This document shows positions 2,992 to 25,170 of a DNA stretch of 58,770 nt, piece by piece (within the stretch, counting starts at the first letter, position 1; each line of letters starts with the position of its first letter). Location: the NCBI GenBank assembly GCA_964646785.1, contig CAZYGU010000002.1, positions 1 through 58,770 on the forward strand, written 5' to 3'. Source of the DNA: an uncultured Candidatus Saccharibacteria bacterium (GTDB taxonomy: Bacteria > Patescibacteriota > Minisyncoccia > Phycocordibacterales > Zambryskibacteraceae). Made by a program: the position numbers and the translations under genes. The notes beneath the pieces were generated by a model, which saw only the letters and a list, made by a program, of their open reading frames with translations, was not told the origin of the DNA and searched no databases.

Positions 2992-3007
2992 TAAGCCTCA
3001 TTATGCG

Positions 3008-3016
3008 TGGTATAAT
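3008..3016 (+). promoter_or_regulatory. extended -10 promoter element (TGgTATAAT), 8 nt upstream of ATG 3025
   Basis: tggtataat at 3008-3016. The short distance to the start codon implies a leaderless or near-leaderless transcript. Confidence 0.4.
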
Positions 3017-3024
3017 GGGTATAT

Positions 3025-3756: not shown

Positions 3757-3760
3757 CATA

Positions 3761-4570: not shown

Positions 4571-4601
4571 AATCATCATCTTACTGAAATAAATACATAG
4601 T

Positions 4602-4823: not shown

Positions 4824-4830
4824 AAATTAA

Positions 4831-4859
4831 AACTACACAAACTAATTGTGTAGTTTTTT
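4831..4859 (+). terminator. rho-independent terminator
   Basis: A perfect 10-bp stem, aactacacaa (4831-4840) paired with ttgtgtagtt (4846-4855), with a 5-nt loop and a following T-run. Confidence 0.65.
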
Positions 4860-5466
4860 AATGTGGATAACTCACCATCATCAACACAATAATAATTTAC
4901 AGATGTACAACAATGTAGGGAAGTATTAAGTGTTAAAAATTATTACCACCTGCTTCTTATTTGGTTACAGTAAAAAAATTTATGATATGAAATTAGCTAG
5001 TAGTCAAAAATACAAATTATTTTTTGGTGAGTTGTCGTGAAACACGCACGGTATGGTAATTTCAATATTTGAAGTGTATAAATCAGAACTTTTTGTATTA
5101 CAACTATATTAGGCACTGAATATATAAAGATTAGTAATGTTTATTAATGTTTTGTCCTTACCATATATATGACTTATTCAACGCAGCTGATGTATGAATA
5201 CATAACTACCTAGTTATTCAACTAAATATTGCTACTTTAGAATAATAAATAATATGTTTCACATTTAAATATCATGATGAAAAAAGTGCTCATTCATCAA
5301 AAAACTTTTTTTAAATGTTTCGATTGCATTTGTTATTGATAGGAGAAAATAATTTAAATTGGGTTTTGATCAGCAAAATTTCATCCCATTTTGGTTTACA
5401 AAATACATCTAATTCTGTTCATGTTTTTTTGTATATAACAGGAGCAAATATTGTTAAAATTTCAGT

Positions 5467-8400
5467 ATGTTCACGCGTACATTTTCGTTGCGGATCTTGT
5501 CGCTAACTAAAATCATTTTGGTTTGTTTTTTTGTCGCATGTGTATTTCCATTGTTTGCAAACGCAGATGATACTTTGAGTGTGACACCGGAATCTGAGAC
5601 CACGCAAATTGCGGATACATCTTTGATTCCCGAAATTACTTCAACTCAATCAACTGAAAATAATTCAACTAACAGTGTGTCCATCGAGACTCCAGTTGAA
5701 CCAGTAGTTGAAGATGGTCCAAGCACTACTTTATCTGATGAAGCAAATGTATTAACTACACACGAAGAAGTATCGTATGTTGATCTTTCGACTTCAACAC
5801 CAACTACTACAGTTCAAATCACTTCAGATGTTTCTGATGAAGACGTTGAGAACGTTGATGCTGCTACATCGAGCAGTGGCAGTGTTTCTGCATTATCAAC
5901 GTTGCCAACCATAATTGAGACTTATGATGGTACTGGCAAAACAGTCGTGGTTTCAGCAACACCTGAGCAAGAGCTCATAACTCCAATGATAAATGTTCCG
6001 GTTCATACACAAATTCCTGAAATATTTAAAGTTGGTCAGGAGAATCAAATAAAAATTAAATGGCAAAACAACGGAAATGAGGAGATGTCGTTTGTTGCAA
6101 CCGACGAGGATAGTAATGGATATATTGATCATGTTGCGTGGGTAGTGCCACATCTCTCGACTCAAACTTTCTCTATTATTTATATTTCGAATGCACTACA
6201 GTTAGATTCAGATAAAAATGTAATTGCTGATATATATAATGTAGTTCGAAATGTTGACGGTGCCTATGCGCCACTTTTAAATGGTCAGTTTGTTCGTGTG
6301 ACATTTGAGCAGATCCTTGATAACACAAAAGATATAACGCTGTATGCGAGACCTCATAATGAAAGAGATTCTGTAAGGGTTGAAATATATACGTTAGATG
6401 GAAGTTATATAACTACTATTGATGCCATAGACCATGATGGTAAGTACAGAGTGCTCCTTACTGATCTTGCAACTTCAACTGATACTTTTGATTTGAAAAT
6501 TATTGGGGATATTGATATCGATCAAATTATAGACCCAGCACCTGCTACAGCATATTGGGTTGGTGGAACTGGAGATTGGTCAGACGCAGCAAACCACTGG
6601 GCAGCATCGTCGAACGGAGCACCAGGTGCAGGAAATGCACCTGACGCGACAAGTAACGTAGTTTTCGATGCATCATCGGGCGGTGCAGCAACGGTAGTTA
6701 CTATTGATACAAATGTCACTGTTGGTTCTATGACAATCAGTGGGTACACTGGCACAATTCTCCAAAATGCAAATCTTTCAATTACGAATTCTGGAGGCCG
6801 GTCTGGGAATTATACTCAGAACTCAGCTGTAACATTTACCGCAATAAATCCAGGAACAAATACGCTGTCAGTAACTGGAAGCTTCACATTAAATGCAGGT
6901 GTATTTCGAAGATACACAGGTCTCGGTATTAGTAGTGATCCATTTCTAATTTTTGATGTGTACGGATTGCAAGCAATGAAAACAACTGCAACAAGTACAT
7001 ACAAATTGAATAATAATATTGACGCAGCAACTACTACTGGTTGGAACACTGGTGCAGGTTTTGATCCAGTAGGAACTCTCGCAAATCCATTTACAGGAAT
7101 TTTCGATGGAAATAATTTTGCAATTAATAATTTGTATATTAGTACCACAACATCAAGTTATGTTGGTCTTTTTGGGTATTCCACGAACCTTGTAAAAAAT
7201 GTGAGTATCTTAGATGTTTCAATATCTGCGACAAGTACAGCTGGTACAGTTGGTAGTACTGGAGCAAATGGATCAGACGGTGCAGCAACCTCAAATGGTG
7301 TTGCTGGTGGTGCGGGTACGGCAGGAAGTACTTTGTATTTAGGTGGAGTGGTTGGATATAACACTGGAACAATTACAAATGTAAGTGTTACAGGAAATAT
7401 TATTGGTACTGGAGGTGCGGGTGGAGCTGGTGGAAACGGAGGAAACGGAGGAAACATTACAACAGGTGCAAATGCAGGTGGAACTGGTGGTGCGGCAGCA
7501 AGTAACGCAGCTGCAACAGGAGGTCTCGCATACGTGGGAGGAGTTGTTGGGTATTCTCAGCAAGGAAGTATTACTTTGGCGACAAGCTCAGCGTCTGTCA
7601 CAGGTGTTGGTGGTGCTGGAGGTTCAAGTGGTAATGCTGGAAACGGAGGAAATGGATCTGTTGCTGGAGTTGGTACAGGTACGGGAGGCGCTGGTGGAGC
7701 GGCTGGAGTTGCTGGTGCAGGAAACATTGCATATGTTGGAGGTCTTATAGGGTGGGTCAATGCAGGAACAATTGATGAGTCGTATGCAACAGGAAATGTA
7801 ACTGCAAGAGGTGGTGCAGGAGGTAATGCAGGAACATCGGGTACAGGTGGAAATGCAGGAGTTGGAGGAGGAGGTGCAAACCTTGGTGGTATCGGCGGCG
7901 CGGGTGCTGCTGGTGGAGCGGCTGGAACAACGTATGCTGGAGGTCTTGTAGGAAATAATTCGGGCACTATTGAAAATGGAAGTTATGCGACTGGTATAGT
8001 GCAAGCAACTGGAGGTACTCCTGGTAATGCTTCTGCTGGAAGTTCAGGTGGTGCTTCTGCTGCAGGTTCAGTTATCGCTGCTGCATCAGGTGCAACAGCA
8101 ATTGGTGGTGCGGGAGGTGCTGGAGCCATTGCATATGCCGGAGGTTTAGTTGCTCAAAATAATACTCCCGGATTCATTAACGGTTCGATATCAAATGTCT
8201 ATTCAACTGGGTCTGTTACAGCAACTGGTACTGCTGGAAAAAATGGAGCAGCAGGAGGAGCGGGAGGAAGCGCATCACTCACAACTACCGGTACTGGTGG
8301 TGTTGGAGGTGCCGCGGGAAACGGAGGTGCGGGTGGAGCTGCGTACAGTGGAGGATTGGTTGGAATAAATTTGGGATCAATTATCACAGCAAACTCGTTA

Positions 8401-11400
8401 ACTGGAGTTGTAACAGTTGTTGGTGGTGACGGTGGCATTGGTGGCACTGGAGGATCGGGTGGGGCTAAAGGATCAGCGGGAACATCTGGAGCTGGAGGAG
8501 CGAGTGGTGCTGGAGGTTCTGCTGCAATTTCTTCTACGTATGCTGGAGGACTTGTTGGTAGTAATACAGGTACAATTCGTTTTGCATATTCTACAAACGC
8601 AGTAAATGGTCAAGCTGGTGCTGGAGGTGCTGGAGGAACTGGTGTTGCTGCTCAGACTGGTCTTGCGGGTCTTGCAGGTGGAACTGGTGGTGCTGCTGGA
8701 GTTTTATATATTGGAGGTGTTGTGGGTAACAATACACTTGCCATTGTAGATAGTTATCATACAACCGGAAATATAAATGGTACCGCTGGAGCTGGTGGTG
8801 CAGCTGGGGCGGGTGGTGCTGGAGGCACGTGGTCTGGAGGAACTCAAGGGGCTGCAGGAACGGCGATTATTGGAGGAATTGTATATGCCGGTGGTGTGGT
8901 TGGAAATAATACAGGTACTTCACTTCTTAATGTGTACTCAACAGTAGATGTTACAGGAACTTCAGGTGCGGGAGGTGCTGGCGCAAACGGAGGTGCTGGC
9001 TACACATTTACAACTGGAGTTGCGGGTGTTGCCGGAAGCGTTGGACTCACCGGAGGTATTGCATATGTTGGTGGAGTTGTCGGATTTTTAAATAATGGAG
9101 AAATTCAAAATTCATATTCAACAGGCACGATCACAGCTCAAGGTGGAAACGGCGGAAATGGAGGTAACGGAGGAAATGGTGGTGCGGGAACAGCGGGTAC
9201 AGGAGGTGTCGGTGGTGCTGGAGCTGCAGGTGGAACTGGTGGTGCAGCATTTGCAGGTGGTGTTGCAGGAAACATTGTTTTGGGAACTGTTTCTGGAAGT
9301 TACAACACAGGAAATATTATTGTGAACGGAGGAAACGGGGGGACTGCAGGTAACGGAGGTAGCGGAGGAATTGGTGGAACAAGCTTTGCTGGAGGTACTG
9401 GTACTGTTGCAGGTGCTGGTGGAGCCGGAGCTGCCGCTGCGGGAGGCGGAGTTGCAGGACAGAGCGCTGGTGTAATTCAAGCTTCTTCATACTCAACTGG
9501 AAATGTAACCTCAACTGGAGGAACTGCACAGGTTGGAGGAATTGGAGGAAACGGAGGAGCGTCTACTGGAACATTTGTTGGAGCTGGAGCGGTTGGAGGT
9601 GCTGGAGGCGCTGGAGGTGCCGGAGCAATTGCTTATGCTGCGGGTATTTCTGGTAACAACACAAACACAATTCAAAATTCTTATGCGAGTGGGATTATGT
9701 CTGCGGTTGCCTCTGCGGGCGCAAACGGAGGTGCGGCAGGTCTTGGAGGAAGTAACGCTTCTGGAGGTTCTTCAAGTACCGGTGCTGCTGGTGCAAACGG
9801 AGGCGCTGGAGGTGCGAGTGCTGTTGCGTATGCAGGAGGTATTGCAGGTTTGAACACAGCAATTATTACTAATACATATATTGAATCAGGATCAGCGAGC
9901 TCACTTGGAAGTGCTGGAGGTGCTGGAATAGTTGGAGGTGTTGGAGGAACTGCTGGAACTGGAGCTTTGGGTGCCATTGGTGGAACCGGAGGTGCCGGTG
10001 CTGGTGGTGGAATTGGATATGCTGGTGGGCTTGTTGCGTTTAACTCTGCAGGAACAATAAATAATTCTCACTCATTTATTACTGCAAGTTCAACAGGCGG
10101 TACTTCTGGTATTGGTGGAAACGGAGGCGGAGGTGGTTATGGAAGCACCGGTGGAACTGGTGGTATTGGTGTTGTTGGTGCTGCGGGCTATGCCGGAGGT
10201 GCGGTTGGAATGAACACTGGGGTAATCAACAATTCTTATGCAACAGGAAATGCAATTGCAACTGGAGGTGCCGGTAGCTCAAACGGTGCTGGTGGAAACG
10301 GTGGATCAAGCAGCACTTCTGCAGGCGGTGCTGGTGGAGCTGCGGGTGCCGCAACAACTAACCTTGGTGGTGTTGGATATGCTGGTGGGCTTGTTGGATT
10401 CAATTCAACAAACGGAAGCATTCAAGGTGCATCACATGCAAGTGGTAATGCTACTTCAACTGGAGGTACAGGAGCGAGCGGACTCACCGGTGGTTCAGGT
10501 GCTTCATCTACTGGGGCATTCACGGGAGGTACTGGTGTAGCTGGAGGTGCCGGACTTGCAGGAGGTGTTGCTGCTGCCGGAGGACTTATTGGATTTAATT
10601 CTGGATCAGTTGCTTCTGATTCATACGCAGGTGGAAATGCTTATGCAAACGGAGGAAATGGAGGCAACGGAGGAAATGGAGGAAATGGAGGAGCGAGTGG
10701 TGCTGGTGTTGTTGGAGTTGCAGGTGTTGGAGGTGGAGCGGGACTCACTGGTGGTGCTGCATATGCTGGAGGTGTGATTGGTAACGACAGCGTACTTGGT
10801 ACAACAATTTCAATTCCAAACACAACAGGGACAGTTGCTTCTCTTGGTGGTACTGGTGGAACTGGTGGAAGTGGTGGTAACGGTGGAAATGGTGGGAGCA
10901 CAGCGGGAGCAATTGGTGGAGCTGGAGGTACGGCTGGTGCTGGAGGAAACGGTGGACTTGCTGCGAGCGGTGGAGTGCTCGGTTTTAATGCTGGGGTAAT
11001 TCATGATGTGACTTATACAATCACATCAATTACTGCGCTCGGTGGAGTTGCTGGAACTGGAGGCACAGGAGGAAATGCTGGAGCGTCAGGAAACGTTGCT
11101 GCAAGTGCCGGTGCAACTGCAGGTAACGGAGGTGCTGGTGGTATTGGCGGAGCTACATATATAGGTGGACTTGTTGGCGACAACTCGGGAGTGATTGTTG
11201 ATTCAATTGTTACAGGAAGTCTCACTGCAGTTGGAAGAAATGGAGGTAACGGTGGAAATGGTGGTGTTGGTGGAAGTGGATCTCTTGGAACTGGAGGTCA
11301 TGCTGGAGGTATTGGTGGAGCTGGAGGAAACGGATCTTCTGGAGGTGCTGTATATATTGGAGGACTTGCTGGTCAAGGAAACGGAAATATTCAAAAATCT

Positions 11401-17400: not shown

Positions 17401-20400
17401 TTTACTGCCTATGGGGGAAGTTCACCGATTACAATTACAGGCCTTTCAAATGGTGTTTCATATACATTTACTGTAACAGCAACAAACGCAGTGGGAACAA
17501 GTACTGCTTCTGCAACTACAAATTCTGTAACACCAGCAACTGTTCCTGATGCACCAACAATTGGTACAGCAACAGCAGGAAATGGACAAGCAACAATTAC
17601 ATTTACACCACCAGTATCAAATGGTGGAGATTCAATTACATATTACACAGTAACATCAAATACTGGTGGGTTTGTTGCATACGGTGGCTCATCTCCGATT
17701 GTTATTACAGGCCTTTCAAATGGTGTTTCATATACATTTACTGTAACAGCAACAAACGCAGTGGGAACAAGTACTGCTTCTGCAACTACAAATTCTGTAA
17801 CACCAGCAACTGTTCCTGATGCACCAACAATTGGTACAGCAACAGCAGGAAATGGACAAGCAACAATTACATTTACACCACCAGTATCAAATGGTGGATC
17901 AGTAATAACTTCGTACACTGTGTATTCAAGCACAGGGGGATTCACTGCAACAGGAGGATCATCACCAATCACAATTACTGGACTCAGCAATGGAACGGCT
18001 TATACATTTACTGTAAAAGCTACAAATGCAATCGGAGATAGTGTTAGTTCATCTGCAACAAATTCTGTCACTCCAGCTACTGTTCCAGACGCACCAACAT
18101 CAGTAACTGCAGTTCGAGGAAATGGACAAGCAACAATTTCATTTAGTGCGCCGTTATCAGATGGTGGAAGTGCAATTACGTATTACACTGTGTATTCAAG
18201 TAGTGGAGGGTTGGTTGCATATGGTGCTAGTTCTCCAATTACAATTACAGGTCTTTCAAATGGTACATCATATGCATTCACAGTGACTGCGACAAACGCA
18301 GTTGGTACAAGTACTGTTTCATCAGCAAGTAATACTGTTTCTCCTGCTACTGTTCCCGATGCGCCGACAATTGGTACAGCAACAGTAGGAAATGGACAAG
18401 CAACAATTTCATTTACCCCACCGGTAAACGATGGATACTCATCTGTTTTGTATTACACCGTTACCTCAAATACTGGTGGCTTTACTGTGTACAGCGGCAC
18501 ATCACCAGTGGTTATTACTGGGCTTACGAATGGAACGACATATAACTTTACAGTGACTGCGACAAACGCAGTTGGTACAAGTTCACCATCAAGTGCTACA
18601 AATTCTGTTGTGCCTGTCACTGTGCCAAGTGCTCCTACTTCTGTAACAGCTACTGCTGGAAATGGACAAGCAACGATTTCATTTACTGCATCAGCATCTG
18701 ATGGCGGAAGTGCAATTACTACATATACAGTTTCATCAAACATCGGTGGATTTACAGCAACAGGAGGTTCATCTCCAATAACGATCACAGGACTTTCAAA
18801 TGGCACGACATATACATTCACGGTAACCGCAAGTAACGCATACGGAACAAGTACTCAATCAGCAACAAGTAATGCTGTAACACCGGCAACCGTTCCAGAT
18901 GCTCCAACTTCTGTAAGTGCAGTCATGGGTAATGGACAAGCAACAATTTCATTTAGCGCACCTTCATCAGATGGTGGAAGTGCTATAACGTATTACACCG
19001 TGTATTCAAACACTGGTGGATTTACAGCAACTGGCGGAAGTTCTCCAATTACAATCACTGGTTTAAATAATGGCACAACATATACATTCACAGTTAAGGC
19101 AACAAATGCAGTTGGGACAAGTACTGCATCAGGAACAAGTAATGCAGTTACACCAGCAACAGTTCCCGATGCGCCGACAATAGGAACCGCAACAGCAGGA
19201 AATGGTCAGGCAACAATTACGTTTACTCCTCCAGTAAATACAGGAGGTGCCTCAATTTCATACTATACAGTGACATCTAATGTGGGTGTATTCACAACAT
19301 ATAGCGCAAGTTCACCAGTTACTATTACTGGACTTTCAAATGGAACAACGTACACATTTACTGTCACGGCTACAAATTCAGTTGGAACAAGTACTGCATC
19401 AAGCCCAACAAATTCAGTCGTTCCAGCAACAGTTCCAGATGCACCGACTTCAGTTACTGCTGTTCGAGGTGACGGTCAGGCGACAATTACGTTTAGTGCA
19501 CCATCATCAGACGGCGGTAGTCCAATTACGATATATACTGTTGCTTCAAATATTGGGGGATTTGTTGCTACAGGTGGAAGTTCACCAATCATAATTACAG
19601 GTCTTAATAATGGAACCGCGTACACATTTACTGTGACTGCAAGAAACAGTGTAGGCACAAGTGCAAGTTCTACTGCATCAAATTCTATAACACCAGCATC
19701 TGCACCAGGCGCACCAACTTCCGTCACTGCTGTGCGTGGAAATGGAGAAGCAACTATCTCATTTAGTACGCCTTCATCAAATGGTGGAAGTGCTATTACG
19801 TATTACACAGTCTCATCAAATATTGGCGGGTTCACTGCTTACGGTGGTTCTTCTCCAATAACTATTACGGGTCTTTCTAACGGAACAGCATACACATTTA
19901 CCGTAACTGCAACAAATGCAGTTGGCACAAGTACACAATCGGCGACAAGTAACTCTGTGACACCAGCTACTTTACCCGATGCACCTACAGGAGTAACAGC
20001 TGTACGTGGTGATGGAGAAGCCACGATCTCATTTAGCGCACCTTCATCAGATGGTGGAAGTGCTATAACGTATTACACCGTGTATTCAAACACTGGTGGA
20101 TTTACAGCAACTGGCGGAAGTTCTCCAATTACAATCACTGGTTTAAATAATGGCACAACATATACATTCACAGTTAAGGCAACAAATGCAGTTGGGACAA
20201 GTACTGCATCAGGGACAAGTAATGCTGTTACACCGGCAGGTGCACCAGGAGCGCCAACAGGAGTAACAGCTGTACGTGGTGATGGTCAAGCTACAATTAC
20301 ATTCACGCCACCAATATCAAATGGTGGAAGTGCAATTACTACATATACAGTTACATCAAACATCGGTGGATTTACAGCAACTGGCGGAAGTTCACCAATT

Positions 20401-21960
20401 ACAATCACAGGACTTTCAAACGGGACCGCGTACACATTTACTGTAACTGCAAGTAATGCTGTTGGTACAAGTACTGCGTCTACCGCTTCAAATTCAGTAA
20501 CACCAGCTACGTCACCAGATGCACCAACAAATGTTGCCGCAAGTATTGGTGATACAAGTGCGACAGTAACTTGGTCAACTCCTGCATTTAATGGAGGATC
20601 AGCAATTACTATATATACCGTAACTGCAAGTAGTGGTGGACATACCGCAACAAGTACTGGAAATTCTGCTGTAGTTCTTGGTCTTACAAATGGTATTTCG
20701 TACACATTTACTGTGACTGCAAGTAATGTAGTTGGAACTAGTACATCATCAGGAACAAGTAATGCTATAACTCCAGCAACAGTACCAGGAGCACCTACAA
20801 ATCTTGCTGCAACAGTGCAAGATAGCAGTATTGATTTGTCATGGACTGCACCCGCATCAAATGGCGGAACTTCAATTACGGATTATATTATTGAATACAA
20901 GCTTTCAAGTGGAGGCACATGGTCAACTTTTAGCGATGGAGTAGGTACAAGTCCATTCGTTACTGTCACAAGTCTTTCAAATGATAATGCATATGACTTT
21001 AGAGTTGTTGCAAAAAATGCGATTGGTCTTGGAGCATCATCAACTCCAGTAAGTGCAACACCGGGTGCACCTGCACAAGTACTGATTCAAGGATTCTCAG
21101 ATACAACTATACCGACCATTGGCACAAATGTTCGAATAACAAATGAAGGATCTGTTGCATATGAATATCAATATACATGGTGTGTTACTGATTCAAGTAG
21201 TAACCAATGTGGTGGTGGAGATGATGTTTTTAGTTCAACAGCAGCAAAATTAGTTCAACCAGCCGAAAACTTCGATACGACACTAAATTCTACCGTTCCA
21301 ATTGCTGGAAATTATTGGTTCCATCTTAATGTAAATTTTGGATCTGATTCTTCGCAAGCAAGTCAATCATTTACTGCAACTCCTTCAGGACCAGCAACTG
21401 CTCCAGGTGCTCCTACAATTGGGACAGCAACGGCAGGTGATGGGCAAGCGATTGTTACATTTACTGCACCAGTAAGTGATGGTGGTTCTGCAATTACGTA
21501 TTACACTGTTACATCAGATGTAGGTAGTTTTACCGCCTATAACACATCATCACCAATAACTATCACAGGACTTTCAAACGGAACCGCATACACATTTACT
21601 GTGACAGCTACAAATTCAGTTGGTACAAGTACAGCATCAAGTGCGTCAAATTCTATAACTCCAGTTGCTGCTTCAGGTGGAAACTCAGGAGGAGGCAGTT
21701 CAGGTGGAAGTGGCGGTGGTGGAGGAGCTTCTCAATCACCATTACCAGTGGCACCTACACCTATCTCAGGACAATGTGGAATTTCAGATGTAAACTGTGA
21801 TGGAAAAGTTAATTCAGTTGATTTCTCAATTATGCTTGCATTTTGGAAAACAAAACCTCCATTTAAAAATCCAGCTGTAGATTTAAATAAAGATGGTAAG
21901 GTTGATTCAGTTGATTTCTCAATTCTGCTTTACTATTGGGGTAGAAAATACAAAATCTAA
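5467..21960 (+). CDS. giant secreted surface protein (5,497 aa): N-terminal head, GLUG-motif glycine-rich repeat region, 16 FN3 modules, C-terminal dockerin
   Basis: One uninterrupted 16,494-nt ORF. Its parts are:
- a Sec-type signal peptide, MFTRTFSLRILSLTKIILVCFFVACVFPLFANA|DD
- a non-repetitive head (about aa 34-360)
- a WVGGTGDWSDAANHW beta-helix-like segment
- the lead-in NPFTGIFDGNNFAINNLYI, followed by about 50 YAGGLVGxNxGxIxNSYATGNV cores
- the repeat-region close YWDITTSG...GKTTTQMKQQATFVGWDF
- FN3 modules
- a G/S linker
- a duplicated DxNxDGKVxSVDFS segment
An in-frame stop at 5455-5457 fixes the start at ATG 5467. Confidence 0.9.
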   Translation: MFTRTFSLRILSLTKIILVCFFVACVFPLFANADDTLSVTPESETTQIADTSLIPEITSTQSTENNSTNSVSIETPVEPVVEDGPSTTLSDEANVLTTHEEVSYVDLSTSTPTTTVQITSDVSDEDVENVDAATSSSGSVSALSTLPTIIETYDGTGKTVVVSATPEQELITPMINVPVHTQIPEIFKVGQENQIKIKWQNNGNEEMSFVATDEDSNGYIDHVAWVVPHLSTQTFSIIYISNALQLDSDKNVIADIYNVVRNVDGAYAPLLNGQFVRVTFEQILDNTKDITLYARPHNERDSVRVEIYTLDGSYITTIDAIDHDGKYRVLLTDLATSTDTFDLKIIGDIDIDQIIDPAPATAYWVGGTGDWSDAANHWAASSNGAPGAGNAPDATSNVVFDASSGGAATVVTIDTNVTVGSMTISGYTGTILQNANLSITNSGGRSGNYTQNSAVTFTAINPGTNTLSVTGSFTLNAGVFRRYTGLGISSDPFLIFDVYGLQAMKTTATSTYKLNNNIDAATTTGWNTGAGFDPVGTLANPFTGIFDGNNFAINNLYISTTTSSYVGLFGYSTNLVKNVSILDVSISATSTAGTVGSTGANGSDGAATSNGVAGGAGTAGSTLYLGGVVGYNTGTITNVSVTGNIIGTGGAGGAGGNGGNGGNITTGANAGGTGGAAASNAAATGGLAYVGGVVGYSQQGSITLATSSASVTGVGGAGGSSGNAGNGGNGSVAGVGTGTGGAGGAAGVAGAGNIAYVGGLIGWVNAGTIDESYATGNVTARGGAGGNAGTSGTGGNAGVGGGGANLGGIGGAGAAGGAAGTTYAGGLVGNNSGTIENGSYATGIVQATGGTPGNASAGSSGGASAAGSVIAAASGATAIGGAGGAGAIAYAGGLVAQNNTPGFINGSISNVYSTGSVTATGTAGKNGAAGGAGGSASLTTTGTGGVGGAAGNGGAGGAAYSGGLVGINLGSIITANSLTGVVTVVGGDGGIGGTGGSGGAKGSAGTSGAGGASGAGGSAAISSTYAGGLVGSNTGTIRFAYSTNAVNGQAGAGGAGGTGVAAQTGLAGLAGGTGGAAGVLYIGGVVGNNTLAIVDSYHTTGNINGTAGAGGAAGAGGAGGTWSGGTQGAAGTAIIGGIVYAGGVVGNNTGTSLLNVYSTVDVTGTSGAGGAGANGGAGYTFTTGVAGVAGSVGLTGGIAYVGGVVGFLNNGEIQNSYSTGTITAQGGNGGNGGNGGNGGAGTAGTGGVGGAGAAGGTGGAAFAGGVAGNIVLGTVSGSYNTGNIIVNGGNGGTAGNGGSGGIGGTSFAGGTGTVAGAGGAGAAAAGGGVAGQSAGVIQASSYSTGNVTSTGGTAQVGGIGGNGGASTGTFVGAGAVGGAGGAGGAGAIAYAAGISGNNTNTIQNSYASGIMSAVASAGANGGAAGLGGSNASGGSSSTGAAGANGGAGGASAVAYAGGIAGLNTAIITNTYIESGSASSLGSAGGAGIVGGVGGTAGTGALGAIGGTGGAGAGGGIGYAGGLVAFNSAGTINNSHSFITASSTGGTSGIGGNGGGGGYGSTGGTGGIGVVGAAGYAGGAVGMNTGVINNSYATGNAIATGGAGSSNGAGGNGGSSSTSAGGAGGAAGAATTNLGGVGYAGGLVGFNSTNGSIQGASHASGNATSTGGTGASGLTGGSGASSTGAFTGGTGVAGGAGLAGGVAAAGGLIGFNSGSVASDSYAGGNAYANGGNGGNGGNGGNGGASGAGVVGVAGVGGGAGLTGGAAYAGGVIGNDSVLGTTISIPNTTGTVASLGGTGGTGGSGGNGGNGGSTAGAIGGAGGTAGAGGNGGLAASGGVLGFNAGVIHDVTYTITSITALGGVAGTGGTGGNAGASGNVAASAGATAGNGGAGGIGGATYIGGLVGDNSGVIVDSIVTGSLTAVGRNGGNGGNGGVGGSGSLGTGGHAGGIGGAGGNGSSGGAVYIGGLAGQGNGNIQKSRAIGGTITVTVGGNGGTAGAGAAGGAGGSGSGKNGVGGAGGTGGVIGAVYAGGAIGFNSLVSVLIDTVYSTNNVVVTAGNGGDGGAGVAGVNGAAGSAGGGGGGGGAVGVAVYGGGLEGYNSGAAQNIFNSYATGNVTVTGGNGGTGQVGGAGAAAISAVVGGAGANGGIGGAGGFAYGGGLVGFTNTLVAIASTTASGNITVLAGNGGNAGNGGAGSTGGAGQVGGTGGTGGAAGLGGASYAGGLIGLVTSGDISNSYSTGFVQGTSGNGGNSGAGGAGGAGGSSVAGTAGTAGTVGANGGVNYTGGLVGDNTSSILNSYHIGGAVTATSGNGGNGGAGGNGGASGSITNGTAVAGGAGGNGGVGGAVSVGGLVGRNGVTAVSATITNSYATTSVTVLGGNGGNGGVGGNGGNGSAGTNHIGGVGGAGGAGGAAATGLATSVQAGGLVGQNVLGTITSSYAQTGTVTATGGNGGTPALGGTGGIGTGTAVYGAGGAGANGGAGGAVYSGGLVGYTTGVVEAGSYSITSLVLTGGSGANGTAGISASNNTGAAGSVPGAGGASGVVYAGGLAGYSTSDVISSYASYDSVSGKGNITITGGTPGNGGNAGNGGSGLAAGGAGGAGGLGTAGIGGAASGAFAGGLIGFSSGIITSSYATNLTISGTEQNGGQGGTGGNGGTGVGAFNGGVGTIGGNGGAGGVRAFGGLVGDFISTIGTIQGFSYSTVNISVTSGNGGQGGTGGNGGTSGASQSSGTAAVAGVGGNGGAGAAAYGGGLVGRITGTTQIMRISNSNATGNVSVVGGNGGNGGQGGNGGNGSTGSATHAGATGGLGGVSGVGGEADAGGLVGVSNLTSGSIDFLTLNATGNVSATGGNGGTQGTGGNGGASASGAAGGAGGGSVLTPPAGGAAYAGGLIGIHRVTITPAGSGVINSYATGVVTAQGGVGAAGNTGGNGGTGGTIGGAGGAGGASGIGGEADAGGLVGLTSVTTGFIHYLDNRSATGTVTATGGQSGIGGNAGSSTVGGSGAGGSTGASGASAAGGAAYAGGLVGQINASASNNLQITTNYSTRNVSATGGASGNGGVGIIGGNGGTASIGGVGGAGGASGAGGASYAGGLVGTNGTAALAGGGIIEDVSYATGNVTSTSGNVGVAGNGGDGGQSNSGTATTAAAGGAVGTTGAGGAAYAGGLVGINAATGVILNSYAAGLVTSLARNGGQGGTGGNGGSASLSTGTGGPGTIGGAGGAGGDSYAGGLIGYNVNALNTVTTSSAIGATVSGTSGNGGQGGTGGNGGAAGIAAAGGAAGAGAAAGNAGTLYIGGLIGRNDGTVQTYSYSTSNVVGVAGTGGTGGTGGNGADGSVGTSGNGGNGGVGGAAAAGGAGGIAYAGGFVGRNETTRVIKDSYSLGSLTVSGGAGGVGGLGGNGGDGGDGASAGTGGTGGNAGASGAGTGGGVKYGGGFAGYNLGNILTVYSLGLVSITGSDGGAGGNGGNAGNGGNGGATGTGGTGGNQGTTSNAGNGGVLHAGGLIGYNFTAGVVSNSWTAGSVTTFGGNGGTAGTRGASGTGGNGGTLAGGNGGTSVAGSAGGAGGASIAGGLVGSNITTGSFTNSYASTTVTMTGGNGSIGGTGGKGGNGGVGGIGGSGNGGTGQAGSIGGNGGTGGAVTGGGLVGDNTGAITNAYAQGNITASAGTPANGGTGGAGGNGGAAGGGSVGVNGSGANGGQGGAGANALVGGLLGSQATSLASSTYSYGVPTATKSTGVSGGAGGAAGTGGSGGSAGSTGATGASTALQYAGGIVGNPVSGTWASSYWDITTSGKTDGAGNATTPTNTLGKTTTQMKQQATFVGWDFTIFPVWDIVQTTTYPYFNYQTTPDAPTNVTAVAGNGQATITFTPPANMGGGQILSYTVTSSPGGFTATAGASPIVVTGLTNGVAYTFTVTATNANGTSVSSATSNAVTPATVPDAPTIGTATRGNGQATITFTPPVSNGGSTILYYTVSSNIGGFTAYGGSSPITITGLSNGVSYTFTVTATNAVGTSTASATTNSVTPATVPDAPTIGTATAGNGQATITFTPPVSNGGDSITYYTVTSNTGGFVAYGGSSPIVITGLSNGVSYTFTVTATNAVGTSTASATTNSVTPATVPDAPTIGTATAGNGQATITFTPPVSNGGSVITSYTVYSSTGGFTATGGSSPITITGLSNGTAYTFTVKATNAIGDSVSSSATNSVTPATVPDAPTSVTAVRGNGQATISFSAPLSDGGSAITYYTVYSSSGGLVAYGASSPITITGLSNGTSYAFTVTATNAVGTSTVSSASNTVSPATVPDAPTIGTATVGNGQATISFTPPVNDGYSSVLYYTVTSNTGGFTVYSGTSPVVITGLTNGTTYNFTVTATNAVGTSSPSSATNSVVPVTVPSAPTSVTATAGNGQATISFTASASDGGSAITTYTVSSNIGGFTATGGSSPITITGLSNGTTYTFTVTASNAYGTSTQSATSNAVTPATVPDAPTSVSAVMGNGQATISFSAPSSDGGSAITYYTVYSNTGGFTATGGSSPITITGLNNGTTYTFTVKATNAVGTSTASGTSNAVTPATVPDAPTIGTATAGNGQATITFTPPVNTGGASISYYTVTSNVGVFTTYSASSPVTITGLSNGTTYTFTVTATNSVGTSTASSPTNSVVPATVPDAPTSVTAVRGDGQATITFSAPSSDGGSPITIYTVASNIGGFVATGGSSPIIITGLNNGTAYTFTVTARNSVGTSASSTASNSITPASAPGAPTSVTAVRGNGEATISFSTPSSNGGSAITYYTVSSNIGGFTAYGGSSPITITGLSNGTAYTFTVTATNAVGTSTQSATSNSVTPATLPDAPTGVTAVRGDGEATISFSAPSSDGGSAITYYTVYSNTGGFTATGGSSPITITGLNNGTTYTFTVKATNAVGTSTASGTSNAVTPAGAPGAPTGVTAVRGDGQATITFTPPISNGGSAITTYTVTSNIGGFTATGGSSPITITGLSNGTAYTFTVTASNAVGTSTASTASNSVTPATSPDAPTNVAASIGDTSATVTWSTPAFNGGSAITIYTVTASSGGHTATSTGNSAVVLGLTNGISYTFTVTASNVVGTSTSSGTSNAITPATVPGAPTNLAATVQDSSIDLSWTAPASNGGTSITDYIIEYKLSSGGTWSTFSDGVGTSPFVTVTSLSNDNAYDFRVVAKNAIGLGASSTPVSATPGAPAQVLIQGFSDTTIPTIGTNVRITNEGSVAYEYQYTWCVTDSSSNQCGGGDDVFSSTAAKLVQPAENFDTTLNSTVPIAGNYWFHLNVNFGSDSSQASQSFTATPSGPATAPGAPTIGTATAGDGQAIVTFTAPVSDGGSAITYYTVTSDVGSFTAYNTSSPITITGLSNGTAYTFTVTATNSVGTSTASSASNSITPVAASGGNSGGGSSGGSGGGGGASQSPLPVAPTPISGQCGISDVNCDGKVNSVDFSIMLAFWKTKPPFKNPAVDLNKDGKVDSVDFSILLYYWGRKYKI
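7084..16840 (+). repeat. in-frame array of about 50 GLUG-type repeats separated by (GGxGGxG)n glycine-rich spacers
   Basis: The core [YF]-[AVIG]-G-G-[LVIF]-[VIA]-G-x-N-x-G-x-I-x-x-S-Y-[AS]-T-G-x-V recurs about every 55-75 aa. I counted about 50 by eye. The spacers look like GGAGGNGGNGGNGG. Coding-strand GGN codons create long stop-free shadow ORFs in the other frames. Confidence 0.8.
17002..21066 (+). repeat. 15 tandem fibronectin type III modules (90 aa / 270 nt period)
   Basis: Repeating unit: TVPDAPT(I/S)(G/V)TA(T/V)xGNGQATI(T/S)F(T/S)xPxSxGGSxITxYTVxSNxGGFTAxGGSSPITITGLSNGTxYTFTVTATNAVGTSTxSxxSNxVTPA. Two pairs of internal DNA repeats are exact: 17434-17628 = 17704-17898 and 18949-19133 = 20029-20213. 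Confidence 0.85.
21397..21666 (+). repeat. 16th FN3 module, separated from the array by a unique 110-aa insert (21067-21396)
   Basis: TAPGAPTIGTATAGDGQAIVTFTAPVSDGGSAITYYTVTSDVGSFTAYNTSSPITITGLSNGTAYTFTVTATNSVGTSTASSASNSITPV. Confidence 0.8.
21787..21939 (+). other. type-I-like dockerin module (two Ca-binding loop + helix repeats) at the extreme C-terminus of the giant protein
   Basis: The two repeats are DVNCDGKVNSVDFSIMLAFW and DLNKDGKVDSVDFSILLYYW. Both fit the dockerin D-x-N-x-D-G-x-(V/I)-(N/D)-x-x-D loop followed by an amphipathic helix. They are preceded by a GGNSGGGSSGGSGGGGG linker. Confidence 0.75.
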
Positions 21961-22830
21961 ATGAAATATTTATTACAAACATATATATGTGCACTAGGTA
22001 TTTTTACACTATGGTTAATTCCTTCGTATGTATTTGGAGCACAGCTGTATCTGACAGCAAGTCATGATGTTGTTTCAGTTGGTGATACATTGCTTATTCA
22101 TGCACAACTTGATACAGAAAATGAGCTACTTAATGCAATTGAAGGAACAGTACTTCTTGATTCAAAAGCAGAATATGAGTTTAATACTGCTGGATCAGTT
22201 TTTACTATATGGCCTACTGCACCTACTGCATCTCTTGAAACACAGAAAGTCTCATTTGTTGGAGGTGTACCTGATGGTGTTAATTCATCTAAAGCTTCAG
22301 TTTTTAATATTGCTGTAAAATTTACTAAAGAAGGAATTATATCTATTGCTCCTGAAAAAATTACTGCATACAAAAATGACGGAAAGGGAACAGCTGTTCC
22401 TGTCGTTATTAAGAGTATTTCAGTTCGTGTGGTTCAAAAAACTCAAGATACTAAGTCAATTGATGAGTGGACTAACACAAAATCAACTGACACTGAGCCA
22501 CCTCTTCCATTTTCTATTACTCTTGGAAAAGACAGTACAGTGTATGACGGTAAGCAATTTATTGTATTTTCTACAGCAGATAAGGGTTCAGGTGTTGATT
22601 ACTATGAAGTAACAGAAGGTGATTTTGCACCAGTACAAAGTGATGGTGTATATGTTTTAAAAAATGAATTGGGAAATGAATTAATTACAGTATCTGCATA
22701 CGATAAAGCAGGAAATGTTCGTACAGAAACATTTACTCAATCACCAGTATCACACTCAGTACGAAATAGTATTATTATATTTGTAGTATGTATGATAATT
22801 TTTGTCGTATTATATAGAAGACGAACATGA
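21961..22830 (+). CDS. membrane-anchored cohesin-domain protein (small paralogue)
   Basis: The ATG directly follows the TAA of the giant gene. It has a signal peptide (…LIPSYVFG|AQ). The cohesin-like module spans about aa 27-157 (nt 22039-22431): LYLTASHDVVSVGDTLLIHAQLDT...LNAIEGTVLLD...FTIWPT...VSFVGGVPDG...ASVFNIAVKFTKEG. This is followed by an Ig-like module with GVDYYEV...AYDKAGNV, a C-terminal TM helix (IIIFVVCMIIFVVLY) and an RRRT stop-transfer tail. Confidence 0.75.
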   Translation: MKYLLQTYICALGIFTLWLIPSYVFGAQLYLTASHDVVSVGDTLLIHAQLDTENELLNAIEGTVLLDSKAEYEFNTAGSVFTIWPTAPTASLETQKVSFVGGVPDGVNSSKASVFNIAVKFTKEGIISIAPEKITAYKNDGKGTAVPVVIKSISVRVVQKTQDTKSIDEWTNTKSTDTEPPLPFSITLGKDSTVYDGKQFIVFSTADKGSGVDYYEVTEGDFAPVQSDGVYVLKNELGNELITVSAYDKAGNVRTETFTQSPVSHSVRNSIIIFVVCMIIFVVLYRRRT

Positions 22831-24566
22831 AATTTTTTTTGAACAATATATATAGCGTTCTATTTATATTTTTGTGTTTTTTTTGTATACCATTTTGTAT
22901 TAACGCAGCAACACTATCGTTGTCGCCAAGTACGAATACGGTGAGTCCGGGAAATATCCTTAATGTTTCAGTATTAGTAAATACACAGGGAAAGGTAATA
23001 AACAACAGTGATGCAATTATTCAGTTTCCAACTGATCTTTTGCAAGTTGTTTCTGTAGACACTAGTAGTTCGATTTTTTCTCTATGGGTTGAAAACCCTG
23101 CGTTTTCGAATTCTCTTGGACAAATTACGTTTAATGGAGGAGCGCCAAACCCTGGATATTCTGGTAGTACTGGAAAAATAATTTCAATAACATTTTTAGC
23201 AAAAAAAGCAGGAACTGCGTCACTTATTTTTGGTGATTCATCAATTCGTGAGAATGATGGTCTTGGAACAGATGTACTTACTGGTACAAACCCAACTACA
23301 ATCACAATTGGAAGTACCGTACAGGCTCCTGTCACAACACCTGTTCAGACACCGGTGTCCTCGAATCAGGTTGTTGCAGCACCTGTTGTGACATCATCAT
23401 CACACCCTCAACAAAAATCATGGTACAACAATAGTACTGTTCAAGTTGCTTGGACTTTACCGAGTGATGCTACTTCAGTTAAAACTTTTCTTGGGTCACA
23501 TTCAGATTCAGATACAAGTGTTGTCTATAAACCTATAATTACTTCAAAAACTATCGATAAGCTGGAAGATGGTGTTTGGTATTTTCATGTGAATTATCAA
23601 ACGCCTCGGGGTTGGTCTAAAGTAGCACACTATAAGCTTCAAATAGATACAGTAAATCCAAAGAATTTTAGCTTATTAGTTACCAAGGGTGACCAAGGTG
23701 GCGCAAAGGTTAGTGTAAGTGCTCAAGATGAACTGTCAGGTGTAGATCACTATACAATCTCAGTTGATAATGCTGAGCCAATTGTAATTCCGTCCGATAC
23801 CGAAACAGCTGATCCGCTGTATATCCCAATTCTTACCACAGGTGATCATTTGATTATTGCAAAAGCATATGACAAAGCAGGAAATGTTGCTGAAACGAGC
23901 TCACATGTCGTGACTGATGTTGCATCAACGGTGAGTATCGATTCATATCCAACATCAATCGCAGTTAATGACAGTATTAATGTGTCTGGAGTTGCACCTT
24001 ACCAGAATGCACCGTTAACTGTGTCATTAAAGTTCGGAAATGATCAGGTACAAACATACTCAATATCGTCAGACAGTAGCTCGACCTACCACTTTATAAG
24101 TCCTCCGATTACTGAAAAGGGTAGCTACACACTTTGGGTTGATTTAAAAAAGGCAGATGGAAGTGTTAGTCTATCTTCGAAAAAGGTCTCAATTGAAGTA
24201 ACAAAACCAGTACTTCTTCAAATTGGATCATTTACAACAGGGCTTCTTACTGTTTTGATCCCACTTGTTGCAATGATATTCACCCTACTGTTTCTTGTAT
24301 ATATTGGTTGGTACAAATTCTTCATGCTTCGTAAACGTCGCCATGCAGAGTTTAAACGAATCGAAGATAGTGTGCATCATTCTCTTCAAGTATTATCGAG
24401 TGAGTTATTTAAGCAGTTTGATCTTGTTGAGAAAGTCAGTAAATCACGAAGTAGTAGTGCTGAAGAGAAACAAGCCATGAAAGATCTCAAGGAAGCAATT
24501 TCAGATATTGATGTCTACATTGATATGCAAATCAAGAAAATAGAAAAAAACGAAACCAAGGATTAG
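22827..24566 (+). CDS. membrane-anchored cohesin-domain protein (large paralogue) with a cytoplasmic coiled-coil tail
   Basis: The start overlaps the upstream stop (ATGA, 22827-22830). It has a signal peptide (…CIPFCINA|A). The cohesin-like module spans aa 28-162 (nt 22908-23312): LSLSPSTNTVSPGNILNVSVLVNTQGKVINNSDAIIQFPTDLLQVVSV...SLWVENPAFSNSLGQITFNGGAPNPGYSGSTGKIISITFLAKKAGTASLIF. It then has a TPV-rich linker, SSSHPQQKSWY, beta-rich modules sharing GVDHYTI...AYDKAGNV with the paralogue, a TM helix (about 24241-24315) and an ~85-aa charged tail. Confidence 0.8.
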   Translation: MKFFLNNIYSVLFIFLCFFCIPFCINAATLSLSPSTNTVSPGNILNVSVLVNTQGKVINNSDAIIQFPTDLLQVVSVDTSSSIFSLWVENPAFSNSLGQITFNGGAPNPGYSGSTGKIISITFLAKKAGTASLIFGDSSIRENDGLGTDVLTGTNPTTITIGSTVQAPVTTPVQTPVSSNQVVAAPVVTSSSHPQQKSWYNNSTVQVAWTLPSDATSVKTFLGSHSDSDTSVVYKPIITSKTIDKLEDGVWYFHVNYQTPRGWSKVAHYKLQIDTVNPKNFSLLVTKGDQGGAKVSVSAQDELSGVDHYTISVDNAEPIVIPSDTETADPLYIPILTTGDHLIIAKAYDKAGNVAETSSHVVTDVASTVSIDSYPTSIAVNDSINVSGVAPYQNAPLTVSLKFGNDQVQTYSISSDSSSTYHFISPPITEKGSYTLWVDLKKADGSVSLSSKKVSIEVTKPVLLQIGSFTTGLLTVLIPLVAMIFTLLFLVYIGWYKFFMLRKRRHAEFKRIEDSVHHSLQVLSSELFKQFDLVEKVSKSRSSSAEEKQAMKDLKEAISDIDVYIDMQIKKIEKNETKD

Positions 24567-24609
24567 TGGTTTATGTACTAATGCTTTTGCTCTTATCATG
24601 TAAAAAATA

Positions 24610-24635
24610 CCGCCCCGATCATTTGATCGGGGCGG
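24610..24635 (-). terminator. GC-rich hairpin terminator; functional T-run on the minus strand, possibly bidirectional
   Basis: ccgccccgatc (24610-24620) pairs with gatcggggcgg (24625-24635), an 11-bp perfect stem with a 4-nt loop. On the minus strand it is followed by tatttttta. On the plus strand it is preceded by an A-run only. Confidence 0.65.
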
Positions 24636-24651
24636 GTTGCAAGAGAGACAG

Positions 24652-25017
24652 TTAGTGTTTCGAAATGAAGAATACGACGTGTGTCGAACTCATCATATTC
24701 ATTGAAAAATGCAAACCTTCCTTCCTCTGGTCAGCATCTTGAACTTCAACAACAAGCTCGAAGATGGCTTTTTGCTCGCATTCAGTGCGAACCAGTTCGC
24801 AAAGGGCACGCAGTCCGGGCTGAGGGATTTTTCCCAAACCAAGATGAATTTCCTTGAACACCGTATTGAGCACGTAGGTGTATCCCTCGTGCTGGCACAC
24901 GGTTTGAAGCATCTTGGTTTCACGAACTTCTCTTACCGCTTCGAGTACTTCCTTTATGAGCTCTGCTCGGTGGGAAGTGCCGTGTGTTTCCATTGGCGAA
25001 ATCCGAATCTTATGCAT
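24652..25017 (-). CDS. hypothetical protein (orphan; the only minus-strand gene in the window)
   Basis: The ORF runs to 25062. I prefer ATG 25015-25017 (MHKIRISPMETHG...) because AGGAGA (plus-strand tctcct, 25024-25029) sits 6 nt upstream of it. Local GC is visibly higher than in neighbouring genes. A terminator hairpin lies just downstream on the minus strand. I recognise no family. Confidence 0.5.
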   Translation of the reverse strand: MHKIRISPMETHGTSHRAELIKEVLEAVREVRETKMLQTVCQHEGYTYVLNTVFKEIHLGLGKIPQPGLRALCELVRTECEQKAIFELVVEVQDADQRKEGLHFSMNMMSSTHVVFFISKH

Positions 25018-25170
25018 GAACTTCTCTCCTGTCTTTGTAGGGCTCGCAGAGAACGTCGTCACTCTGCATGCCTACGAAAAAGAACAAAACGACGTTAAAT
25101 ATATTATACTACTAATGAAGTATATAGTCAATGATAGGAAAATGGCTAAATATAAGGTATTCTAGGCTTT

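Follow-up and report, generated by a model that had tools for sequence, protein, structure and literature searches.

We analysed a 58,770-nucleotide stretch of DNA (contig CAZYGU010000002.1, forward strand; hereafter the window) that carries three adjoining genes for a candidate cohesin-dockerin system: a gene for a giant secreted protein that ends in a dockerin (the cargo), followed by genes for a small and a large membrane protein that each bear a predicted cohesin module (the anchors). The cargo gene occupies positions 5467-21960 and, as the initial annotation had proposed, is a single open reading frame (ORF) of 5,497 amino acids (aa). The small anchor gene (ORF2, 289 aa) occupies positions 21961-22830, and the large anchor gene (ORF3, 579 aa) positions 22827-24566; all three genes, and all of their parts listed below, lie on the plus strand. 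Both gene junctions were confirmed from the DNA letters as they had been described. In particular, the TAA of the giant directly abuts the ATG of ORF2 at 21961 (...ATC TAA ATG AAA..., bases 21958-21963), and the stop codon of ORF2 overlaps the start codon of ORF3 in an ATGA (within ACATGA, with the ATG at 22827 and the TGA at 22828-22830).

The giant is modular throughout. It begins with a signal peptide (aa 1-33, ...FANA|DD; 5467-5565), and aa 5-35 are its sole hydrophobic segment. A scan of the whole protein revealed neither a C-terminal transmembrane (TM) helix nor an LPXT[GAN] motif, in agreement with the initial annotation, which had noted the lack of a hydrophobic C-terminal anchor and of an LPXTG-like motif; a sortase-anchored or self-anchored fibre was ruled out on the same grounds. 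The N-terminal region had been described as a unique head of about 330 aa. This description did not stand: the region comprises an acidic, Ser/Thr-rich, low-complexity stretch of about 113 aa (aa 34-146; 5566-5904) and a head module of about 223 aa (aa 147-369; 5905-6573; motif VRVTFEQILDNTKDITLYARP...FDLKI..IDIDQIIDP) that recurs in 19 other loci. The head module has no Pfam match and no PDB sequence match.

The head is followed by a Gly/Ala-rich body of GLUG-type repeats (aa ~370-3800; 6574-16866). The body is built of about 45-50 units, which are about 64 aa long and consist of a GLUG-type core (Y[AV]GG[LV]VG..N.G.I.NSYATG) and a GGxGG-rich spacer, and the composition of aa 600-3700 is 35% Gly and 15% Ala. 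A loose regular expression, Y[AV]GG[LV]VG, matches 49 times between aa 689 and aa 3767 at a spacing of about 56-70 aa, with a few spurious matches among the 49, and the GLUG profile (PF07581) reaches 30.5 bits (cut-off 20.5) and marks six stretches in the segment comprising aa 379-978; an earlier count of about 50 GLUG-type repeats is thus a fair one. The GLUG profile gave no match when the 3,000-aa Gly-rich segment was scanned whole, nor for aa ~3179-3778, which may reflect composition filtering or divergence.

Downstream of the repeat body lie 15 tandem FN3 modules with a 90-aa period (aa ~3846-5200; 17002-21066), a conserved Cys-containing module (the Cys module; aa ~5205-5308; 21079-21390; NEGSVAYEYQYTWCVTDSSSNQCGGGDD...), a 16th FN3 module (aa ~5309-5400; 21391-21666), and a flexible Gly/Ser-rich linker (aa ~5401-5436; 21667-21774). 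The proposed total of 16 FN3 modules is supported both by Pfam (fn3, PF00041; E = 7e-137, 16 stretches) and by 16 copies of the signature Y.F.V.A.N, of which 15 follow the strict 90-aa period and one lies after the Cys module. Tandem Repeats Finder reports a 270-nucleotide (nt) period with 12.4 copies in the FN3 region, and pairs of FN3 modules share at most 92% DNA identity. PDB sequence searches with the Cys module and the GLUG segment gave no informative match.

The giant ends in a type I dockerin (aa 5437-5497; 21775-21957) that consists of two near-symmetric segments, each with a calcium loop and a helix. The identification is secure: the Dockerin_1 profile (PF00404) scores 35.9 bits against a gathering cut-off of 22.9 at aa ~5440-5487, and canonical 12-residue calcium loops are present at aa 5441 (DVNCDGKVNSVD) and aa 5472 (DLNKDGKVDSVD), so that the duplicated DxNxDGKVxSVDFS tail that had been noted is indeed a dockerin. 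The pattern tested was two segments of about 22 residues, each with the loop D-x-[DN]-x-[DN]-G-x-[VIL]-x-x-x-D and a helix after it. The consensus of 72 dockerin tails from the family retains the same calcium-loop pattern, and in these tails the two segments are near-identical at the helix positions (consensus KVNSVDFSILLYFW / KVDSVDFSILLYqW). PF00404 also passes at the extreme C-terminus of all eight cargos sampled from other loci. With a dockerin hidden Markov model (HMM), the giant was the only match in a six-frame search of the window, and the cargo position was the only match among plus-strand ORFs of related loci.

The two downstream proteins share one layout, and the signal peptide and single C-terminal TM helix that had been proposed for each were both confirmed. 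Specifically, ORF2 comprises a signal peptide (aa 1-26), a cohesin module (aa 27-163; 22039-22449), an immunoglobulin (Ig)/FN3-like module (aa ~176-259; 22486-22737), and a C-terminal TM helix (aa 263-289; 22747-22827). ORF3 comprises a signal peptide (aa 1-27), a cohesin module (aa 28-170; 22908-23336), a stalk of Ig-like modules that includes OmpL47/DUF7743-type and Big_13 modules (aa ~185-460; 23379-24206), a TM helix (aa 466-496; 24222-24314), and a conserved, charged, helical cytoplasmic tail of 83 aa (aa 497-579; 24315-24563), in which R541, L543, and E547 are near-invariant in the family. The two proteins are paralogues (BLASTP E = 4e-12; hhalign of the two families, probability 99.9%, E = 2.4e-37).

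The N-terminal modules of ORF2 and ORF3 are predicted with confidence to adopt the cohesin fold, a nine-stranded beta-sandwich (jelly-roll) of about 140 aa. An AlphaFold2 model of the ORF3 N-terminal module (predicted local distance difference test score, pLDDT, 88.6; predicted template-modelling score, pTM, 0.82) retrieved cohesins at ranks 1-38 of a Foldseek search of the PDB, type I cohesins first, with TM-scores of 0.72-0.78; the top match was 2vn5_C (E = 5e-10), and the matches included OlpC and OlpA of Clostridium (Acetivibrio) thermocellum and a non-cellulosomal cohesin of Archaeoglobus fulgidus. An AlphaFold2 model of ORF2 (pLDDT 85.5) matched best a Clostridium perfringens GH84C cohesin+FN3 construct (2w1n; E = 7e-11), and nearly all of its top 50 Foldseek matches were cohesins, with target TM-scores of up to 0.80. 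The ORF3 family (more than 324 matches) is conserved over its full length, and 3 of 30 sampled members pass the Pfam Cohesin profile (gathering score 24.1 bits) with 26.4-33.9 bits at residues ~36-152, the region homologous to ORF3 aa 28-170. Both cohesin modules carry the same conserved motifs, and the invariant residues cluster in putative strands beta-3, 5, 6, and 8 (numbered from strand order alone) and the loop that follows; these strands may correspond to the 8-3-6-5 sheet through which cohesins bind dockerins. The cohesin-like modules proposed in the initial annotation therefore stand through family members and predicted fold, but not through a direct Pfam Cohesin match: Dockerin_1, GLUG, and fn3 pass on the giant, and Cohesin alone fails on ORF2 and ORF3, for which Pfam and NCBIfam scans returned only Big_13 and OmpL47-type Ig modules. 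The initial annotation had also named findings that would overturn a cohesin-dockerin pair, such as the loss of the gene neighbourhood in related genomes; each of those examined came out otherwise.

The three genes are conserved as a triad. A scan of GTDB species representatives detected relatives of ORF3 in 397 species-representative genomes, and an exhaustive profile search placed the large-anchor family in 3,627 clusters at 50% identity (E <= 1e-30). At all six loci checked by hand, a gene encoding poly-Gly and a duplicated dockerin is followed by genes for proteins of about 300 aa and about 575 aa, in that order. The product of the first gene is 537, 799, 1,923, 3,002, or 5,518 aa long, unless the contig ends inside the poly-Gly linker. 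We then scored 82 non-redundant loci with HMMs built in this analysis. The full triad of dockerin cargo, small cohesin-TM protein, and large cohesin-TM protein is present at 67 loci, fused or frameshifted variants at two (L012 and L082), and seven loci are cut by a contig end or ambiguous, so that the order, whose conservation in related genomes the initial annotation had proposed to check, is observed at 69 of 75 informative loci. The flanking genes vary among genomes, which indicates that the triad travels as a unit. Triad-bearing lineages are Parcubacteria/Paceibacteria, and the reliable-looking record names comprise Wolfe-, Adler-, Niyogi-, Nomura-, Colwell-, Portnoy-, Falkow-, Komeili-, and Wildermuthbacteria and Paceibacteria. 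Many third-party-annotation (TPA) metagenome-assembled genomes (among L007-L085) are titled 'Saccharibacteria' or 'Gammaproteobacteria', and one 'Candidatus Methylomirabilis sp.'; these titles are probably placeholder or wrong taxonomic labels, or the contigs are mis-binned. Some members have been auto-annotated as 'cohesin domain-containing' or 'dockerin type I repeat-containing'.

The anchor genes occur in several further arrangements. Fused anchors of about 870 aa with two cohesins are encoded at L082:6790-9387 and L012:1444-4040, and five further fused representatives (P0168, P0171, P0191, P0192, and P0211) are 866-901 aa long; that the small and large anchors are fused in some genomes argues for their joint action. 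L029:6524-11710 encodes a cargo, a small anchor, and two large anchors; L039:5736-10437 includes an extra 680-aa cohesin-module protein past the large anchor; and L066 carries two anchor pairs within 12 kb (2-2575 and 7542-12606).

At about half of the eligible loci, the triad lies next to genes of the twin-arginine translocation (Tat) pathway. Specifically, tatC-tatA(-tatA) lies directly upstream of the cargo, on the same strand and within 2 kb, at 21 of the 41 triad loci with enough upstream sequence (for example L004:5505-6629 and L006:2493-3248, and likewise L020, L021, L025, L037, L040, L042, L047, L054, L067, and L072). All 23 TatC matches in the fetched loci share the strand of the cargo and lie upstream of it, 21 at a distance of less than 2 kb; the window contains no Tat genes. 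Tat export of the cargo was considered and is unsupported, as the 21 Tat-linked cargos and eight anchor pairs inspected carry Sec-type signals that lack a twin-arginine motif. A crude twin-arginine regular expression (S/T-R-R-x-F-L-K) matched 1 of 46 cargo N-termini, probably through a start-codon miscall. The description of the genes as a self-contained operon is accordingly upheld by the conserved triad, but qualified by the upstream tatC-tatA genes at 21 of 41 loci and by six loci at which the large anchor lacks an adjacent cargo.

Whereas the dockerin, usually the Cys module and a poly-Gly linker, and the two anchors are constant across the family, the cargo body of structural modules is variable. 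Complete cargos are between 247 and 3,002 aa long (median about 500 aa), with the giants of the window and of locus L001 as the extremes; the window protein is thus a giant, as had been stated, but such length does not characterise the system. The minimal cargo of 247 aa comprises a signal peptide, a Cys module (NEG..EYxYEWCVV..CGGGDD), poly-Gly, and a dockerin. The Cys module that forms its core is common to most cargos of the family and corresponds to aa ~5205-5308 of the giant. Pfam scans of eight sampled cargos detected Dockerin_1 plus MG2, fn3, or Big_6 only, and no enzyme.

The head module follows a distribution of its own. It occurs at 19 other metagenomic loci (L086-L104), with 34-70% identity, at the N-terminal end of large secreted proteins. 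The bodies behind it differ, being GLUG-type in the two closest loci, and several of the others end in '...WRLP...ELDSIRDQ...YWSS(T/S)E...VRCVRG', which is probably a DUF1566/Lcl-like C-terminus. The head is therefore a shuffled distal module, which would fit a ligand-binding tip. At L093-L095, an insertion that looks intein/Hint-like ('CLSPDTLIS...') lies just past the head.

Cargo genes are systematically under-assembled in metagenomes, because contigs break in the poly-Gly linker, the counterpart in relatives of the Gly/Ser-rich linker of the giant and a frequent contig break point, or in the cargo repeats. The 67-aa dockerin tail, used as a query for homologues, returned only contig-edge fragments of 48-118 aa, and such fragments account for most database copies of the tail (for example L002:1-294 and P0145-P0163).

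Sequence constraint within the triad is strongest at two of the modules that would form the contact. Mean pairwise identity is 0.53 for the dockerin and 0.52 for the large cohesin, against 0.32-0.38 for the other modules of the triad. Across all triads, dockerin similarity and cohesin similarity correlate with Spearman coefficients of 0.69-0.70, against 0.14-0.31 for the dockerin and other modules of the large protein. The family comprises two sub-families, A and B, and the dockerin and the cohesins switch between them together. Thirteen of the scored triads belong to type B, which is marked by a dockerin HMM score below 95 bits; among them are the loci L069 and L064 of Falkowbacteria and Portnoybacteria. 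The type B dockerin is divergent (KVNLVDFSIAAYW), both cohesin modules are correspondingly divergent, and the type B cargos inspected (L064:1241-2209 and L069:852-1889) have, in place of the Cys module, a Cys-rich N-terminus with poly-Gly. The co-evolution signal is suggestive only, because it is driven largely by these two sub-families.

The transcription unit is probably bounded by hairpins. On the upstream side, a palindromic hairpin followed by TTTTTT lies on the plus strand at 4829-4857, after an ORF of 73 aa, and is a probable boundary. On the downstream side, a GC-rich hairpin with an 11-bp stem, including nine G-C pairs, lies at 24610-24635, 44 nt past the ORF3 stop codon, and is likewise a probable boundary, although its T-run is present on the minus strand only. 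The earlier statement that a terminator follows only after the third gene therefore holds for a hairpin boundary at that position, but not for a textbook plus-strand intrinsic terminator; a loose terminator scan also detected weak terminator-like sites inside genes. The gap of about 600 bp between ORF3 and a YchF GTPase gene (24567-25170) has no Rfam, tRNA, or Pfam match. It contains two overlapping ORFs with no family match, of 136 aa on the minus strand and 129 aa on the plus strand, and the minus-strand ORF is followed by the hairpin and T-run at 24635-24610.

The composition of the giant gene departs from that of its surroundings. The repeat body has a GC content of about 0.50, compared with 0.36 in the rest of the window, and positions 8001-16000 have a GC content of 0.49-0.51 (about 0.36 elsewhere) and a GC skew of +0.35 to +0.40 (about +0.05 to +0.10 elsewhere). 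Both follow from the Gly (GGN) and Ala (GCN) codons that make up the repeat body and do not indicate foreign DNA. Repeat mis-assembly is unlikely, because FN3 pairs share no more than 92% DNA identity and because an independent relative, L001, encodes a giant of 5,518 aa at the same gene position.

Taken together, we think it likely that the triad is a non-cellulosomal, calcium-dependent cohesin-dockerin tether that holds a variable surface fibre to the membrane in candidate phyla radiation (CPR) bacteria of the Parcubacteria/Paceibacteria type. From their sequence features, all three products would be exported via Sec-type signal peptides. Predicted folds, hydrophobic segments, and positive-inside residues suggest that a single C-terminal TM helix would hold each anchor in the cytoplasmic membrane with its N-terminal cohesin outside, the small anchor on a short one-module stalk and the large anchor on a longer Ig-like stalk with its conserved helical tail in the cytoplasm. 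The cargo, which lacks an anchor of its own and carries its dockerin behind a flexible Gly-rich linker, would plug into one or both cohesins in a calcium-dependent manner, as the modules, the topology, and the synteny suggest, and its body would project outward with the N-terminal head module distal. The window cargo, with its repeat body and 16 FN3 modules, would be an extreme fibre, by our estimate about 100 nm or more in length. The likeliest role would be to present a surface fibre or adhesin that diversifies rapidly, and, judged from sequence, a role in host attachment is plausible.

Several observations weigh against this tether. Pfam Cohesin (PF00963) gives no match to ORF2 or ORF3 even at E <= 10, and PDB sequence searches with ORF2, ORF3, the full family profile, and the cohesin-module profile retrieved no cohesin, the only trace being a sub-threshold match to a ScaB adaptor (E = 0.96). 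Within the main sub-family alone, the dockerin-cohesin correlation falls to 0.30-0.40, against 0.23-0.35 for controls, and the overall co-variation may reflect shared phylogeny together with the split into two clades. Six loci (L049, L055, L060, L062, L065, and L070) carry the large paralogue with neither an adjacent cargo nor a cohesin-bearing small paralogue, so that either pairing is not obligatory in cis or the large protein also does something else; at one of these loci, L049:9555-9962 encodes a 135-aa remnant of the small anchor with the second module and the TM helix only. A tether does not explain why two cohesin paralogues are retained, nor, since the cargos carry Sec-type signals, why tatC-tatA is linked to half of the loci. 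Finally, the plus-strand terminator after ORF3 is non-canonical.

The same tether could serve a different end, and it is possible, if rather unlikely, that the cargo belongs constitutively to the envelope or coat, as an S-layer-like or spacer layer that gives the cell surface its shape or protects it, and is not a host adhesin. The breadth and conservation of the large-anchor family (397 species genomes and 3,627 clusters), its usual occurrence once per locus beside housekeeping genes, and cargos of 247-350 aa that consist of Cys module, linker, and dockerin with little adhesin tip are all consistent with a coat, as is the proposal that dockerin-bearing S-layer proteins of anaerobic methanotrophic (ANME) archaea act as cell-surface organisers (PMC9012536). 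Yet cargo size and composition vary about 20-fold among relatives, which would be unusual for a lattice-forming coat, the distal head of the giant is shuffled among large secreted proteins, as adhesin tips often are, and no S-layer or SLH domain was detected in the triad (Pfam and NCBIfam) or in eight cargos (Pfam). It is unlikely that one dockerin binds both cohesins at once in a 1:1:1 clamp, with the large subunit coupling the fibre to the cytoplasm. Such a clamp would be consistent with the retention of both paralogues at 67 of 82 loci, even in fused form (L082 and the representatives of about 870 aa), with the near-identity of the two dockerin segments at helix positions in 72 tails, with the conserved motifs shared by both cohesins, and with the near-invariant R541, L543, and E547 in the tail of the large paralogue; symmetric dockerins, however, are described as binding one cohesin by either face in a dual-binding mode (PMC8063739), the closest report that we found describes the converse, one cohesin with two truncated dockerins (PMC12270676), and six loci have the large paralogue alone. 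A fuller version, in which the two anchors clamp, 1:1:1, one symmetric dockerin on a hypervariable fibre that contacts the host, the tail of the large anchor passes force or a signal inward, and tatC-tatA marks a shared assembly pathway, we regard as distinctly improbable.

It is very doubtful that the dockerin binds something other than the adjacent cohesin-fold modules, such as a surface component of a host or other cell, a carbohydrate, or a cohesin from elsewhere in the genome, and that the genes lie together only as co-expressed envelope genes. The window proteins do fall below Pfam Cohesin, the co-evolution signal is weak within a sub-family, some large paralogues have no adjacent dockerin gene, and the functions of non-cellulosomal cohesins and dockerins are often unclear (PMC9012536). 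Against this stand the tight translational coupling of the genes (TAA|ATG and ATGA), a gene order that is 92% conserved across lineages in which the anchors share 30-45% identity, the rank of the dockerin and the large cohesin as the two most conserved modules, the joint switching of dockerin and cohesins between sub-families A and B, and the lack of any other means of cell attachment in the cargo. A small, cellulosome-like, polysaccharide-degrading system would explain why the modules are closest to type I cellulosomal cohesins and dockerins, and cohesin and dockerin proteins of Candidatus Shapirobacterales have been interpreted in this way (bioRxiv 10.1101/2021.08.21.457207). We rejected it as extremely improbable: as the initial annotation had stated, the window triad contains no glycoside hydrolase, carbohydrate-binding module (CBM), or multi-cohesin scaffoldin, and the eight sampled cargos contain no carbohydrate-active enzyme, CBM, or scaffoldin either; each anchor has a single cohesin; and each locus has a single dockerin gene, as does the whole 58.7-kb window.

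The tether that we favour resembles several known systems in part. In C. thermocellum, OlpA and OlpC are anchored to the cell wall by SLH domains and serve a cellulosome with many dockerin enzymes. Like the predicted anchors described here, they are cell-bound proteins with a single type I-like cohesin; they capture a secreted dockerin protein directly at the surface (PDB 3ul4, 4dh2), as our anchors would, and they are among the top structural matches of the ORF3 and ORF2 cohesin modules. The differences lie in the anchor, here a C-terminal TM helix, and in the presence of two paralogous anchors in cis with one enzyme-free structural cargo. The cohesin and dockerin modules of C. perfringens reside on secreted enzymes and assemble enzyme complexes. 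They too function outside cellulose degradation. Their solved glycoside hydrolase modules include the cohesins 2jh2 and 2vo8 and the GH84C construct 2w1n, which combines a cohesin with an FN3/Ig-like module as in ORF2; here, in contrast, dedicated membrane proteins carry the cohesins, and the cargo lacks a catalytic domain. The A. fulgidus cohesin 2xdh matches both models (E = 4e-8 and 3.5e-7, TM-scores 0.78-0.79). A. fulgidus and ANME archaea likewise use cohesins and dockerins without degrading cellulose, but belong to another domain of life. The dockerin S-layer proteins of ANME, for which a role in fastening proteins to the cell surface and perhaps in cell-cell contact has been proposed, occur with multi-cohesin scaffoldin-like and dockerin-tagged substrate-binding proteins; no operon of cargo, small anchor, and large anchor is reported there (PMC9012536).

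Three reports concern ultra-small or epibiotic bacteria, and the last two are the only relevant ones that we found for CPR bacteria. The 'Dockerin-type' giants of Omnitrophota are, like the window giant, large, repetitive, and secreted, and they occur in ultra-small, putatively predatory bacteria in which a function in attachment has been proposed (bioRxiv 10.1101/2023.11.21.568195). They are at least 30,000 aa long, however, with many internal dockerin/TSP3 repeats and with their own C-terminal TM and SecA-like regions, whereas the window giant carries one dockerin, at its end, lacks an anchor of its own, and has putative cohesin partners encoded next to it. In Candidatus Shapirobacterales, cohesin and dockerin proteins are expressed according to metaproteomics and were read as a cellulosome (bioRxiv 10.1101/2021.08.21.457207). 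In the epibiont Southlakia epibionticum, SEML1_0315 is an essential, dockerin-bearing, Ig-rich surface protein (PMC10633639); we considered it as a member of the same system and rejected it, as its neighbours are a tRNA gene and a hydrolase gene, with no cohesin-TM genes. Neither the Shapirobacterales nor the Southlakia paper describes the triad, and the full-text literature that we searched, which covers few subscription journals, yielded no description of the cassette. This limited search agrees with the earlier statement that the operon had not been characterised experimentally. Cohesin-dockerin tethering is itself known; what is new here is the combination of paired TM anchors with a variable structural cargo, conserved in Parcubacteria-type CPR bacteria. 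In cellulosomes, near-identical segments let a symmetric dockerin bind one cohesin through either of its two faces, the dual-binding mode (PMC8063739), and simultaneous binding of two cohesins by one dockerin would be new among the reports that we found.

The triad has practical consequences. It provides a rule for finding the tethered surface protein, namely the dockerin-ending gene upstream of the anchors, despite frequent assembly breaks, and it cautions that cohesin and dockerin matches in CPR genomes need not mean a cellulosome. It may also supply a new orthogonal cohesin-dockerin pair for protein engineering. Something new is most likely to lie in three features, namely the tatC-tatA linkage, the retention of two anchors, and the conserved tail of the large anchor in the cytoplasm. 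If the two anchors do clamp one dockerin and signal inward, the stoichiometry and the use of the cohesin-dockerin pair would be without precedent in the reports found.

Parcubacteria/Paceibacteria are very abundant and mostly uncultivated, and little is known about the construction of their cell surface or their attachment to partners; a 2024 study of a Paceibacteria-methanogen culture still calls for cryo-electron microscopy of the attachment structures (PMC10936435). The cassette is a concrete and compact molecular handle on this question, comprising two small soluble modules and present in hundreds of species genomes. If the cargo heads bind hosts, head diversity would map host range. As the triad recurs in hundreds of ultra-small Parcubacteria-type genomes, these bacteria probably use it to keep a variable surface protein on the cell.

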